64,000 nucleotides of DNA. It comes from Nitrospirota bacterium. GTDB taxonomy: Bacteria > Nitrospirota > UBA9217. This document shows positions 24,928 to 33,184 of the stretch, one piece after another. How positions within the stretch are numbered: position 1 is the first letter of the stretch; every line of letters begins with the position of its first letter. The notes beneath the pieces were generated by a model. The model did no database searches, was not told the DNA's origin, and saw nothing but the letters and a program-made list of their open reading frames with translations. A program made the position numbers and the translations under genes. The stretch covers positions 79,819 through 143,818 of the forward strand of contig CAVVOB010000023.1 of assembly GCA_963749655.1 (NCBI GenBank). Reading direction: 5' to 3'.

Positions 24928-25201
24928 GGTAAGCTCCCTCCTTGATGACGATTAATATAATACCGTTTTCATCCTGGTTAGAAACAGTATAACCGAAGTC
25001 GGAGCCGACTACAAGTAAAAAAGAATGATTCCAATCTGTATTTCTAATTTGATATCTGTTAATAATGAGGGGCAGAAGCCAGAATTCAGCGGTCAGCTGG
25101 CAGTACAATGCCCGTTAAGGCCTCCGAGTGCCGTAAAAGAGATTGACCCGCGCTGTACATTCAATTAATATATGCATGTCAGCCACAAAGGGGGTGTTTC
25201 T

Positions 25202-25465
25202 GTGATATCAAAGCTTATCTTGCGGTTAAACGACTCGGTCATCAAGCAAGCGAGAAAGACCGCGCAGAACAAGGGCGTCAGCCTTTCGCGGATGGTCGAG
25301 GACTATTTCAAGTCAATCGCAGCCCAGAAAACGCGCGATGTATGGGAATCTCCAGTGCTGTATGAAGTGGCAGGAGTGCTGACAGGCAAACAGAACGCTG
25401 CAGGGCTTCGGGGCCGATACAGGAATCATGTCACTGAGAAGTACCGCCAGAAGGCCACTCAATGA
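25202..25465 (+). CDS. DUF6364-like RHH antitoxin (orphan)
   Basis: KLILRLNDSVIKQARKTAQNKGVSLSRMVEDYF; no downstream PIN toxin. Confidence 0.7.
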   Translation: MISKLILRLNDSVIKQARKTAQNKGVSLSRMVEDYFKSIAAQKTRDVWESPVLYEVAGVLTGKQNAAGLRGRYRNHVTEKYRQKATQ

Positions 25466-25515: not shown

Positions 25516-26785
25516 TCAAAAAAACATCGAAGCACTCAACCCGAGTCCGTAGGCTACGCTCGTGAAGGCTTCCCGCTGCTGCATCTTCTCCTGACCGAAG
25601 CGCCGGACAAAGAGGTCCCTGACGATCGGGATATGGGAAGTGCCGCCGGTGGTAAAGATCACGTCGATGTCGCCGGGCCGGAGCCCCGCCTTCTGCACCG
25701 TATCATCGATGCACGCTGAAATCTTTCCAATATGACCGCTGATGGCTTCCTCGAATTCTTTCCGCCCGACCGCTTCTCTGATCTCAAGGCCCTGTTCGCG
25801 GAAAAATATCATGGACTTCTCGTAGGAAGACAATTCTATCTTTGCCTTTTCGAGAGCCTGGAAAAGCAGGAAACCGTTGTTGTCTTCGATCAGGTTCTGG
25901 AGGTTCGTGATGGCAGCGGGGTCGTCCGCCGTGATCCTTATGCCCTGGAGGGCCTCCCTGACGCTGTTCGTGCGGAGCTGCGGGACCAGGTGCCAGTTGA
26001 TCAGCTTGAAGGTAATGGAGCTCGGCATCTCGAGCGTCTGGCCTGTCATGCTTTTATACCGTACGTCTTTGCCGAAGTATTTGGCGACCTTCTCCCACAT
26101 GAGCCGGGAATCGAACGCATCGCCGGCTGATGGCGACGCCGCCCAGGGAGAGCACGTCCTTTGCCCTGTCCGCCTGGCCGGACTTGCCTCCCGTCAGCCT
26201 GATGACCGTAAAATCCGAGGTGCCTCCGCCGAAATCGCCGATCAGGACGATCTTTTCCTCGTCCTTTGCCAGGCTGTTCTCGAACGTCAGGGCGGCCGCG
26301 ACAGGCTCCAGCTGGAAAGCCACATGCTTGAACCCGGCGATCTCGGCCGCCCGCTTGAGCCGCCCCTCGGCAAGGATGTCCTTGTTCCGGTCCTCGGAAA
26401 AAACCACCGGCCTTCCCATGACCACATCAGTCACTTCGTGCCCTACAAACTCCTCTCCCCGCTTTTTGACGGTCAAAAGGACCAGCGCGATCAGATCTTC
26501 CAGCTCGTACCGCTTCCCGTTGACGTAGGTATATTCGAAGGCCGCGCTTGGCAGAAAGGATTTGATCGACTGCATGAACCTTCCGTGGCCGCGCTGCTCT
26601 ATATATTGCACGATCGCTTCCTGGCCCAGGTAGACGCCCTGCTCCTGGTCCATGAAGATCACGGACCGCATCGTCTTTTCCGTGGGATTGTGCGGATCGA
26701 TATCGATCACTTCCGTGCGGCCCTGCGCATTTACGGCAAGCGCCGAATTCGTGGTTCCAAAATCCAGTCCGAAAACAGTCTGCAT
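25516..26785 (-). CDS. Hsp70-family protein, YegD-like (frameshift near 26125)
   Basis: GLDFGTTNS, LEPVAAA, DFGGGTSDF, TGGTS. Confidence 0.88.
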
Positions 26786-26900
26786 GTGGTCATCCTTGTG
26801 ATGTCGTATGGGGAGCCGAAGTCACAAAATACTTGTTTCAAAAACTGCTGTCCAATCAAAAAATAGGCCCCCTCACGGGGTCCCCTTGATCGAGAAACAC

Positions 26901-26932
26901 AAAAGCCGGCTGGATAAATCCCGCCGGCTTTA
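26901..26932 (-). terminator. Intrinsic terminator after the candidate RNA
   Basis: AAAGCCGGC-gggatttatcca-GCCGGCTTTT on the minus strand. Confidence 0.75.
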
Positions 26933-26939
26933 AATCAAA

Positions 26940-27171
26940 AGGCGTTGCTTCTCGCGATCCAGACCGTTTCGTTGATTCTCGGGCATTGCCGATGGTTGCC
27001 GGTGCTCACGCTTCCGTGCTTTCGCAATTCCTGAAACGGCTCACTTCCATCGTTGTCCGACGCTCTTCGGAGCTATCAGCTTGCCGGCCGATCTTTCAGG
27101 TTGGCAATTCAAGCTCTCAACGAAATGCAGAATACGCGTAACACACTCTTCCGTGTGCTGTAGCAACGCCT
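26940..27171 (-). ncRNA. Candidate structured ncRNA or leader (232 nt), family unknown
   Basis: Nested long-range helices: AGGCGTTGCT/AGCAACGCCT (10 bp), TTTCGTTGA/TCAACGAAA (9 bp), ATTGCC/GGCAAT, CCTGAAA/TTTCAGG; GAAA and GTGA tetraloops; no long ORF; terminator follows. Confidence 0.6.
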
Positions 27172-27318
27172 ACTCATAGTATACCTCAGTATCGTCAAAA
27201 GTGGAGCCCTCAATTCCATCCGACGACATTAGTCTTACACTATAGTTTTTTGCTTCTTCGACGCTTCCTCGTCGATCGAGATGAACGCGCTTTTTGATCC
27301 CCGGAATCCCGGCTCCTT

Positions 27319-27630
27319 TCAATCCGATGAAGAGACGAGGACAGCCGCCTTTTCAGGGGGCTCCTCCAAGGCGACAGCCGATCGCTGACCGCTCACTGCT
27401 GCACCTTCATACCCGCCGGCCGATGCCTTTTTCATGCTGAGTACAGCCGCAATCATCCCGAAGATCATGGCAAATAAAAAGATGATGCCTCCGCAGACCC
27501 GCATGGCAATGGCGACACTCGACCGGACCTTTTCCAGTATCAAAGACGCCGCTCTTTTACCGGAGGTAGTTTGGTCTGAGCTGAAGGCTGACTGCTGATC
27601 GCTGACTGCTGCCTTTTCAACCCCATTCAT
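27319..27630 (-). CDS. Possible small membrane protein carrying embedded repeat sequence
   Basis: One TM segment; AVSDQQSAFS and AVSGQRSAV are translations of the CAGC/GCTG repeat family. Confidence 0.35.
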   Translation of the reverse strand: MNGVEKAAVSDQQSAFSSDQTTSGKRAASLILEKVRSSVAIAMRVCGGIIFLFAMIFGMIAAVLSMKKASAGGYEGAAVSGQRSAVALEEPPEKAAVLVSSSD

Positions 27631-27962
27631 AGTCTGCGTCCCCCTTACTATTACCAAAGTATCGCCATGTTTAATGGTAAGTGTGGAGCAATCGCCACAT
27701 GAGTCATTATCGCCACAAAGCAGCATTTGCCAGAACGCTGAAAAAACCGCACTATCGCTATCATAGCGTAGTTCACAGGCGATCTACCCTAATAAGGTGC
27801 ATATCATGTGCCGGGGAAGAAGCAGTACGAGTTTTTAGTTATGAGTGTTGAGTTTTGAGTTCAATCGGTATCAGGTCGGGTAGAACGCAGAGAGCCTAAC
27901 AGCTTTCAGTCGTTGCTTTAAAGGGTTCCTACACTGACGGCTGACAGCTGACTGCTGAAAAC

Positions 27963-28628
27963 TTACTCCTTGCGCGCCAGCATCGCGATATCGCGCACCT
28001 CGAGCACCCTTTTTTCCGGTCCCCTGCCCACGCTGTTTATCATGGCCAGCCCTATCTCTTTCAGGGTAAGGAAATACCCCGGGAAGAGCGCTTTCGAGAA
28101 CGGGAAGAGCGGCGTGAAGGCGTGATAGAACCAGTGTGTGTTCTTCAGGCCCCTCGTCGGCTGGATAAAAGCCGGCCGGAACATGTAGGCGCTCCGGAAG
28201 GGCAGCTGCATCAGATCGTTCTCGGTCCTGCCTTTTATCCTCGCCCACATGATGCGGCCCTTTTCACTGGAGTCCGTACCCATGCCGGACACGTAGCAGA
28301 TCGTCATGTCAGGGTTCAGTTTTGAAAGCATCCGGGCCAGGGCCATCGTAAGATCGTAGGTCAGGTGCTGGTAGGTTTTTTCCGACATGCCGACGGACGA
28401 CACACCCATGCAGAAAAATCCGGCATTATATCCGCTGAGTTCTTTTTCGATGCTGCTGAAATCGGAGAAATCCTGATGCACGATCTCTTTCAGCTTTCCA
28501 TGGCGCACCCCGCTGGGCCTCCTGGTGATCGCCAGAACGGACTCCACCTCGGGATGAAGGAGGCATTCGTGCAGCACCCCCTCTCCGACCATGCCGGTGA
28601 CGCCGGTTATAATGGCTTTTATTTTCAT
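27963..28628 (-). CDS. NAD(P)-binding epimerase/oxidoreductase (YraR-like)
   Basis: IITGVTGMVG Rossmann motif; WARIKGRTENDL; FRPAFI. Confidence 0.88.
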   Translation of the reverse strand: MKIKAIITGVTGMVGEGVLHECLLHPEVESVLAITRRPSGVRHGKLKEIVHQDFSDFSSIEKELSGYNAGFFCMGVSSVGMSEKTYQHLTYDLTMALARMLSKLNPDMTICYVSGMGTDSSEKGRIMWARIKGRTENDLMQLPFRSAYMFRPAFIQPTRGLKNTHWFYHAFTPLFPFSKALFPGYFLTLKEIGLAMINSVGRGPEKRVLEVRDIAMLARKE

Positions 28629-30499: not shown

Positions 30500-30665
30500 C
30501 CCCCCTGAAGGTCGGCAATTAGTTGTTAGCTATCAGCGATCAGCTGTCCACGAGAAACAGAGGCTATTCCGATCAGCGCTTGACTAATCAAATGGTGACC
30601 GCGTCGAGTTTCACGTTTTGCTACCCGACTTACAAAAGCTGACAGCAGAAAGCTGATCGCAGCTT

Positions 30666-30986
30666 TCATTTCCGCTTACTCTCTCTCCTCTTCAGCTCTT
30701 TCCACTTTTCATATTCTTCCCGGGTTTTGAACCTGGACTCCTGCGGAGAATCGGGGCTGTCTGCATCGGTCTTCGCTTTATCCGCTCCCGGCTTCAGGTA
30801 TCGCATGTTTTTAATGTCGGAGACTTTTATGCGACTGGCTACTCCTCTGTCATTTTTCAAGTTCAGTAAAGTATTGCCATCAAGCCCGTGGTGAAAGCGG
30901 AAAACAAGATCGGATTCCTTTTTCTCATCACCTAATTCAAAGGTTATCACTTTATCGTTTTTTAGAAAGACCTTGATCATGACCAT
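30666..30986 (-). CDS. Hypothetical protein
   Basis: 106-aa ORF with AGGGGG RBS. Confidence 0.6.
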   Translation of the reverse strand: MVMIKVFLKNDKVITFELGDEKKESDLVFRFHHGLDGNTLLNLKNDRGVASRIKVSDIKNMRYLKPGADKAKTDADSPDSPQESRFKTREEYEKWKELKRRESKRK

Positions 30987-32473: not shown

Positions 32474-33184
32474 AGAGTTTTAGCGCTAAGATCGGGATGA
32501 ACTCCGGCAGGAATCCAGGGATTTATGAAGAGCTTTCAGATTTCCCAGTCCCGCACGTCCCCAGAAGCGGTCCTTCACCATTATGTTCGTCATCTTTCTT
32601 GACACGTATGAACGGTAAAAAAAGATAGCACAGTCGGATACAACAGTCTACACAAAATCCTAGCAACCCAAATTGTGGAATAAAAAAGACTTTCAGCTGA
32701 TCGCTGAGAGCTGACCGCTGACAGCTGAATTTAACGAATTCGGCAATGTACAAAGAGAAGCACAAAATGACAAGCTACTCTCCCCGTATTTGGAGGTTCT
32801 TTTAGCAAGACCGATTTTTTGTTAGTGTTATACTCTAATTATCGAACAATCCCGATAGCCTGATAGTTGATTCAGCAGATTGCCTTGGGTTTTGAGGCAG
32901 AGGAAACACATCATCATGCGGGATGCCGGACCCGGCCTCTTCAAAGCCCAAAGCAATTTTTGCCACGAATCAACACGGATTAACACGAATTAAAAAATCG
33001 AGAAGGTTTAGCTGCTCCCGGCGGCGCGTCTCTTTACGGTATCGACCTGCGGCAATTCCTCCCCGGCAGCATCAGCTGCCGCGTTTACCCGTCCAAGGAG
33101 GACGACGAGAGAGCCATTCTTCTTTCAGCAACCTGATGCGAAGCTCGAAAGCTGAAATGCCGGATGGCTTCGGAGTGTGTTGCC

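Follow-up and report, generated by a model that had tools for sequence, protein, structure and literature searches.

A probable stand-alone gene for an uncatalogued structured RNA in one family of uncultivated Nitrospirota

Complex pseudoknotted RNAs that have their own genes are rare, and those that have been solved are usually ribozymes, ligand sensors or the cores of ribonucleoproteins. The raiA motif RNA, OLE, ROOL and GOLLD are orphan, ‘ornate’ structured bacterial RNAs whose function is unknown. GOLLD and related RNAs are named in the abstract of bioRxiv 10.1101/2024.12.08.627333. The locus described here, positions 26901–27171 of a 64,000-nucleotide stretch of Nitrospirota DNA (the window), had been flagged in a sequence-only reading as a multi-helix RNA of no recognised kind, and the sequence found at these positions matches that description. 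The locus has a gene-like frame, conserved relatives, base-pair support, an assigned strand and independence from its neighbours, and it is very probably an independent RNA gene. The full reading that we favour, of a stand-alone, uncatalogued, family-confined structured RNA gene on the minus strand whose product acts in trans as a folded molecule, is likely as a whole; the chance that the product works as a folded protein-binding, ligand-binding or catalytic RNA is about even. The host lineage is known almost only from metagenomes, and no regulatory RNA was found described for it in the literature searched: full-text searching brought up no paper dealing with a structured RNA from this Nitrospirota lineage, and term searches in the main text of PMC11109978 and of PMC8632094 gave no occurrence of ‘Nitrospir’ or ‘Thermodesulfovibrio’.

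Read along the minus strand, the locus consists of a −10-like hexamer, a helix-rich core, a spacer, a terminator hairpin and a U-run. The hexamer was read from the sequence at 27183–27178 and ends 7 nt before the predicted first base. The whole putative transcription unit spans 27172–26895 (about 278 nt), both of its ends being placed from sequence, fold and relatives; within it, the multi-helix core (27170–26941) is about 230–235 nt long. The intrinsic terminator (26930–26895) appears in the single-sequence fold as a hairpin of 9+3 bp (26930–26903) with a U-run (26904–26895), so that the terminator noted earlier before the Hsp70-like gene is borne out by the fold, although simple consensus scans had neither it nor the promoter at 27183–27178 among their predictions. 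The −35 region of the window is a poor match. Judged by eye in 24 full-length loci of the family, a −10-like hexamer stands 6–8 nt before the outer helix in 22–23, a consensus −35 is also present in 11, and a GC-rich hairpin followed by a T-run lies within 80 nt downstream in about 18–19. A sigma-70-type promoter would start transcription near 27171, and the intrinsic terminator would end the transcript near 26895. Most gap runs in alignment A6 (1019 of 1147) have lengths that three does not divide, which argues against a coding region.

The relatives fall into two size classes: short forms of about 230–240 nt (13 sequences, including that of the window) and long or intermediate forms of about 290–316 nt (32 sequences), the extra 60–70 nt or so of the long form sitting in the arm that follows P4/P5. 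The conserved region around the long form runs from about −105 to about +100. The conserved upstream flank was found in 7 of 64 family genomes, at known RNA loci in every case, and since it occurs only beside copies of the RNA it is read as a regulatory region rather than a dispersed element. The idea that the RNA is a cassette within a repeated target was rejected, the flank never having been found without the RNA. A short repeat or palindrome is visible near −95 in this flank. Two further candidates around the long form were also discarded: a convergent small ORF behind the terminator, where frames of 45–47 amino acids end in two loci and the frame is not kept, and a hammerhead core on the opposite strand of the downstream flank, which no Rfam hammerhead model matches.

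The helices were derived by hand from alignments of 45 distinct full-length sequences, left after removal of duplicates (13 short and 32 long or intermediate), and were then counted by computation against slid and shuffled controls. The sequence-only reading had proposed that homologues be collected and covariation checked; in the full set, over 60 shared core and long-arm pairs, 93.3% of cells are paired compared with 35–42% when the strands are slid, and 26 pairs have changed on both sides compared with 9–14, the fold having been drawn from the same sequences that served for the counting. For the 13 short forms (70 pairs) the corresponding values are 89.5% versus 33–39%, with 12 pairs changed on both sides versus 4–5, and for the 32 long forms (76 pairs) they are 92.2% versus 35–43%, with 25 pairs versus 12–16. 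None of 500 shuffles matched the short forms in percentage paired or in covariation score, and none matched the 45 sequences or the long forms on any of five measures, although these shuffle controls are inflated by relatedness because all of the sequences come from one bacterial family. A naive covariation scan over all column pairs was swamped by invariant columns, and a filtered scan lost the helices that bear insertions and deletions.

Folding energy does not discriminate between the strands. The minus strand of 26890–27180 folds at −106.8 kcal/mol (z −3.28, 1 of 200 shuffles as good) and the plus strand at −106.3 kcal/mol (z −4.94, 0 of 200 as good); as both fold better than shuffles, energy alone does not give the strand. 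In the alignments, G-U cells outnumber A-C cells by 227 to 61, and this excess, together with the promoter and the terminator, places the RNA on the minus strand of the window, in agreement with the strand first proposed.

P1, the outer clamp helix, pairs 27170–27162 with 26949–26941. It is the outermost helix of the sequence-only reading (26940–49/27162–71) and is confirmed, with 9 of 9 cells paired in the window and 107 of 108 in the 12 other short forms of alignment A5, which supply the relatives' counts for all of the previously described helices. Over the 45 sequences 98.9% of its cells pair, five of eight pairs never vary and none has changed on both sides; being nearly invariant, P1 adds no covariation evidence. 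Inside it lies the P2 hairpin (27159–27140), with 94.4% of its short-form cells paired and three pairs changed on both sides. This is the first hairpin of the earlier description and it holds in the relatives as well (window 7 of 7, other short forms 77 of 84). P3 joins 27136–27130 to 26960–26955, the window being one partner base short of its relatives; every lettered cell is paired in the short forms (100%), among which there is a single G-C to C-G swap along with many G-U wobbles. P4 (27127–27117 with 26975–26965) takes in the helix described before as 26967–75/27117–25, and it too stands, at 10 of 11 cells in the window and 120 of 132 in the other short forms. In the 45 sequences 92% of P4 cells pair and four pairs have changed on both sides. 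Examples of pair-keeping changes in P4, taken from the short forms, are U-A to C-G and A-U to G-C. The invariance of P1 and of the P4 core suggests that the sequence itself is read by something.

A variable arm follows at 27116–27070, in which P5 (27116–27112 with 27074–27070) encloses P6 and P7 (27109–27078). P5 is well kept, with 94–95% of cells paired, a U-A to A-U change at its base and also an A-U to G-C change; for P6/P7 only 76.9% of cells pair in the short forms. In the long form a larger three-helix arm replaces the variable arm, and 91–96% of the cells in its helices are paired. P8 is a short hairpin of two pairs (27069–27058), one of which occurs as U-A, G-C, A-U and G-U. In the 3′ domain, P9 pairs 27052–27047 with 26995–26990 and P11 pairs 27036–27027 with 26986–26977, the 3′ strand of P4 following directly. 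P11 cells are paired at 85.8% in the short forms and at 88–98% in the 45 sequences, and a double change from C-G to U-A is specific to the window. Inside P11 sits a small apical hairpin with a four-base loop (27026–27017), also known from the first description and retained: 3 of 3 cells pair in the window, 29 of 36 in the other short forms and 88.9% overall in the short forms, while in the long forms the hairpin is longer and 85.4% of its cells pair. Beyond the apical hairpin, two further small hairpins were considered and rejected, as the middle pair of each fails (11 of 45 sequences for one candidate, 2 of 32 long forms for the other).

The first description of the locus thus stands for its sequence, its strand and its outer helices, but two inner helices and several side hairpins proved to be specific to the window. 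The inner helix 27108–27103/26990–26985 pairs fully in the window (6 of 6) but in only 33 of 72 cells of the 12 other short forms, and the inner helix 27100–27094/27036–27030 likewise (7 of 7, against 54 of 84, or 64%). The single-sequence minimum-energy fold includes both. The hairpin 27073–27062 pairs in 4 of 4 window cells but 31 of 48 elsewhere, and the pairing 27092–27087/27080–27075 in 6 of 6 but 43 of 72.

P9 (27052–27047/26995–26990) and P11 (27036–27027/26986–26977) interleave, each of the two crossing helices holding at about 88–97% of cells, and together they would form a pseudoknot, as judged from the alignments of one bacterial family. The equivalent of P9 in the long forms has 92.5% of its cells paired, compared with 19–45% when slid, and both-sided changes in three pairs; it scores 0.321 for covariation, where controls reach at most 0.143. 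Short-form P9 is weaker (69–85% of cells) because the alignment register shifts between subgroups. A local hairpin competes for the 5′ strand of P9 and pairs in 84.5% of long-form cells, a value reached by 321 of 500 shuffles. As the competing hairpin does no better than shuffles, the pseudoknot is preferred, with the hairpin retained as a possible second state. Because the P9 5′ strand of the long forms can form this hairpin instead, a conformational switch is possible.

The MAG to which the window belongs (4.27 Mb, completeness rated at 86.6%) has a single copy of the RNA. Searching 60 relatives at the BLAST level brought up two matches, partial but clear, in the same frame of −10, outer helix and terminator. 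A covariance model of the 3′ half of the RNA, run over 64 genomes of the window's family, gave 25 matches, which lie in 19 of these genomes and in 9 of the 19 genera; these counts are lower bounds because the model covers the 3′ half only, and many of the 64 genomes are incomplete MAGs. In a sample of the phylum, 6 of 27 genomes of the same family match the model, and none of 123 genomes from 21 other Nitrospirota families does. A pattern scan of species-representative genomes returned 12 matches, of which 11 pass the model: ten come from records titled Nitrospirota or Nitrospirae and one from a MAG with Betaproteobacteria in its title. The remaining match arose by chance within coding sequence of a Bdellovibrio. 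A scan of metagenome contigs gave 75 matches, 25 passing the model and 50 due to chance, with a pattern that fits 12 of 24 known sequences and so recovers part of the family. As far as searched, the RNA is confined to one family of uncultivated Nitrospirota.

Sequencing runs labelled as RNA offer a weak hint that relatives of the RNA are transcribed as a discrete unit. Three such runs of two studies each gave one short contig lying wholly inside the RNA body: 208 nt on 26944–27154, 201 nt on 26955–27147 and 164 nt on 26985–27146, at 90–95% identity to the window and a depth of 2–3. One run is a metatranscriptome; the other two carry a transcriptomic label but also the mark ‘probably DNA’, and no run contained more than 9% of the sampled words. 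As the contigs cannot give transcript ends or strand, they amount to a weak hint of expression.

In the reading that we favour, the invariant P1 would clamp both ends of the RNA and a stalk of P3 and P4 would lead to a multi-helix junction. The junction would carry the variable arm, enlarged in the long form, and also a 3′ domain with the crossing helices P9 and P11. We infer that the folded RNA acts in trans through the conserved junction and pseudoknot by binding a protein or a small ligand, catalysis being a possible alternative to binding. The RNA probably does not act by long antisense pairing or by control of an adjoining gene. A more specific proposal is put forward tentatively and is doubtful as it stands: that the RNA represents a new class of pseudoknotted RNA, about 235–300 nt long, in one apparently anaerobic Nitrospirota family, serving either as a trans-acting sensor in which a ligand or protein triggers exchange between the P9 pseudoknot and the local hairpin, or as a small ribozyme, with the long form placed under an upstream operator-like repeat.

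The alternative that survives best, although it is unlikely, is a base-pairing regulatory sRNA, for example an Hfq-dependent one, in which a structured scaffold would present a short accessible seed to distant mRNAs. The locus would suit such an RNA in having a gene of its own, a terminator hairpin with a U-tail and no fixed neighbours, and the lineage-restricted, patchy distribution is typical of sRNAs. However, most of the conserved positions lie in the helices and junctions of a fold with at least 12 helices, crossing ones among them, which is far more structure than is usual in such sRNAs, and no conserved unpaired pyrimidine-rich seed is evident by eye in the alignments.

It is very unlikely that the locus encodes a mobile-element or defence RNA of the kind that serves a transposon nuclease, recombinase or reverse transcriptase as guide, bridge or template, examples being IscB/TnpB guide RNAs, IS110 bridge RNA and retron msr-msd. 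This would account for the variable context and for the one or two copies per genome. Two copies were found in at least seven genomes (in two cases 3–8 kb apart, and with one second copy detected by pattern scan alone), and there is an IS110-type transposase domain 525 nt upstream at one of 25 loci and an IS605 OrfB-type helix-turn-helix 400 nt downstream at one of 25. Against it, genes of this kind lie near only 2 of the 25 loci within flanks of 0.5–1.5 kb, and a reverse transcriptase is found in these flanks at none of the 25. No match to a 501-nt long-form query turned up among 50,697 phage and 72,556 plasmid records. The RNA is not a many-copy repeat, being present once in the window genome and once or twice in relatives; with the conserved flank lying only beside RNA copies, the dispersed DNA repeat that had been raised as a way for the original proposal to fail was not encountered.

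A cis-acting leader, riboswitch or attenuator governing read-through into the Hsp70-like gene is highly improbable. This gene is on the minus strand, its two halves being the ORFs 26785–26054 and 26100–25516, both of which match PF00012, and the flagged stretch is therefore upstream of it. The order in the window, of a promoter, a structured RNA, a terminator and, 110 nt beyond the terminator, a co-directional gene, is what such a leader would show, and an attenuating leader had been among the first suggestions. The closing P1, multi-way junction and pseudoknot, the terminator directly behind and a possible alternative pairing also recall riboswitch and attenuator leaders. At the level of the family, however, the suggestion is contradicted. 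No locus but the window's has the Hsp70-like gene beside the RNA: when the four ORFs that flank the RNA there (both Hsp70 halves, a 135-aa ORF and an epimerase-like ORF) served as tblastn queries, nothing was found beside any other copy. Pfam searches of 59 flanking ORFs from 25 loci gave no recurrent neighbour, the neighbours including prismane, radical SAM, GGDEF/EAL/PAS, NmrA-like and DUF72 types. A crude ORF survey gave a mixed orientation for the downstream gene, and in at least 6 of the 24 full-length family loci the gene immediately downstream is convergent, with Pfam support. A spacer of 10–25 nt separates the terminator from the 3′ strand of P1; by eye the two show no conserved complementarity, and no overlap of the P1 3′ strand with the terminator that would allow an antiterminator was evident by eye. 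Aptamer models do not match, and a simple consensus scan places a promoter-like site (26854–26826) between the RNA terminator and the gene.

That the RNA is a divergent copy of a known one, namely a second 6S RNA, a CsrA sponge or a Ro-associated Y RNA, is extremely improbable. With Rfam 15 (4227 models), the check proposed at the outset, no family reaches its gathering score anywhere in the 64-kb window. With E values up to 10 on 26700–27400, the only matches are a 13-bit eukaryotic lncRNA model and the RcsR1 sRNA (RF02552). RcsR1, the sole sub-threshold match on this strand, reaches 21.7 bits where 60 is the gathering score, and aligns to 26899–26972 only, the last stretch of the RNA with its terminator; the terminator hairpin aligns with that of RcsR1. 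Rfam searches of twenty related loci gave a single match, a c-di-GMP riboswitch elsewhere in one of the loci, and the long form gave only weak terminator-type matches. ARAGORN reports 0 genes in 26500–27600, in keeping with the original remark that tRNA and tmRNA signatures are lacking. The same remark holds for RNase P and SRP, for which Rfam finds no match at the locus, the genome's own RNase P, SRP and 6S RNAs being on other contigs. The novelty claimed for the RNA is supported by the absence of Rfam matches together with conserved homologues, base-pair changes and a promoter and terminator in register.

The paired 5′ and 3′ ends of this small RNA gene and its own strong promoter do recall 6S RNA, and with it Y RNAs, and there are several purine-rich motifs, as in sponges. 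A 6S RNA is, however, a long, irregular rod whose large central bubble mimics an open promoter, whereas the RNA described here would be a stalk with a branched junction and crossing helices. The earlier suggestion of a divergent 6S RNA is further countered by a normal 6S RNA (RF00013, 100.6 bits) on another contig of the genome, and RF00013 has no match at the flagged locus. The proposed CsrA-type sponge resembles CsrB and RsmZ in being a stand-alone small RNA with several purine-rich motifs, some of them conserved by eye in the alignments; by eye, though, several of the motifs lie inside conserved helices and not in hairpin loops. CsrA (PF02599) was found in one of the 64 family genomes, which lacks the RNA, and is absent from the window genome, in a search that was positive in E. 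coli, B. subtilis and T. maritima; as CsrA is missing from all RNA-bearing family genomes, the sponge reading falls. The Ro-type TROVE domain (PF05731), whose Ro60 protein is usually encoded next to YrlA-type Y RNAs, likewise occurs in one of the 64, on a contig other than that of the RNA, and is absent from the window genome; since the domain is almost absent, the Y-RNA reading falls.

A functionless, chance-structured intergenic stretch kept by shared ancestry only is scarcely credible, for although the homologues all come from one family and both strands out-fold shuffles, the unit persists where the sequence around it has been replaced, 26 pairs have changed on both sides against 9–14 in slid controls, and promoter and terminator are in register.

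We therefore return to the stand-alone structured RNA gene as the preferred reading. Its practical weight is limited for now by uncultivated hosts and a narrow family. With 45 distinct sequences in two size classes, and a fold open to testing, there is nevertheless enough for an Rfam-type family, for in vitro probing and for a search for partners. Among described systems, the comparison is with the raiA motif RNA, OLE, ROOL and GOLLD. The Rfam models of these RNAs do not match the RNA described here, which is shorter than OLE, ROOL and GOLLD and has its host in the Nitrospirota, not in Firmicutes or phages. Like them, it has no known function, and it shares with them a restriction to particular lineages and the lack of a fixed gene partner, and, in its architecture, a stand-alone gene with many helices, a junction and a pseudoknot.

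The loci that carry the long form of the RNA (approximately 300 nt, with an enlarged arm) share conserved sequence on both sides of the RNA itself. Upstream, a conserved block extends from about -105 to -36 relative to the RNA (positions 1844-1913 in locus L017, for example); within it, near -95, lies a short repeat or palindrome, which precedes a near-consensus -35 element and an extended -10 element. The upstream block looks like an operator for some regulator. A second conserved block, about 40-60 nt in length, is located 3' of the terminator.

Among the relatives, both truncated and paired copies of the RNA are seen. In genome G066, locus L029 (about 1400-1643) retains only the 3' part of the RNA, corresponding to model positions 56-141, and this fragment immediately follows a DUF72 gene that is itself shortened. 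Since L031, from the same genus, features a full DUF72 gene followed by a full RNA copy, the arrangement in L029 looks like the product of a deletion. Two diverged copies (L013 and L032), of which one is an intermediate form and one a long form, lie only about 3 kb apart on a single contig of genome G008, and two further diverged copies (L040 and L047) are separated by only about 8 kb on a single contig of a Nitrospirota MAG record.

Some RNA copies have neighbours related to c-di-GMP. A c-di-GMP-I-GGC riboswitch (L018, 617-696, minus strand; 67 bits, with the gathering threshold at 59) is positioned approximately 800 nt downstream of the copy in genome G010, and GGDEF/EAL/PAS genes adjoin four other copies. 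The richness of the genomes in genes of this type may be a simple account of such neighbours.

In the window, short tandem arrays of a 7-nt unit (27363-27393, 27587-27611, 27934-27958, 30638-30668 and 32694-32728), with 3.6-5 copies each and 75-88% matches, are found close to gene boundaries at several sites. Two of them fall within a 135-aa ORF (27319-27726), which matches no Pfam family and is perhaps not a gene at all. The profile match of an epimerase-like ORF (27963-28628) is limited to the first 108 of 240 positions.

The minus-strand Hsp70-like gene beside the window RNA (25516-26785) consists of two ORFs, 243 and 194 aa long, that overlap one another. The break between them lies next to a short run of A residues around 26055-26060; the gene is either a frameshifted pseudogene or carries an assembly indel. 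In helix P3 of the window's RNA (27130-27136 with 26955-26960), the 3' strand is one base short, leaving a bulged U without its partner. This base, present in all 12 other short forms, could have been lost through a real deletion or through another single-base assembly error. Shortly beyond the 3' end of the Hsp70-like gene, a 97-aa ORF on the other strand (25172-25465, plus strand) has a DUF6364 match (E 7e-15). The Hsp70-like product comprises the nucleotide-binding domain only, and its closest relatives of solved structure are DnaK chains.
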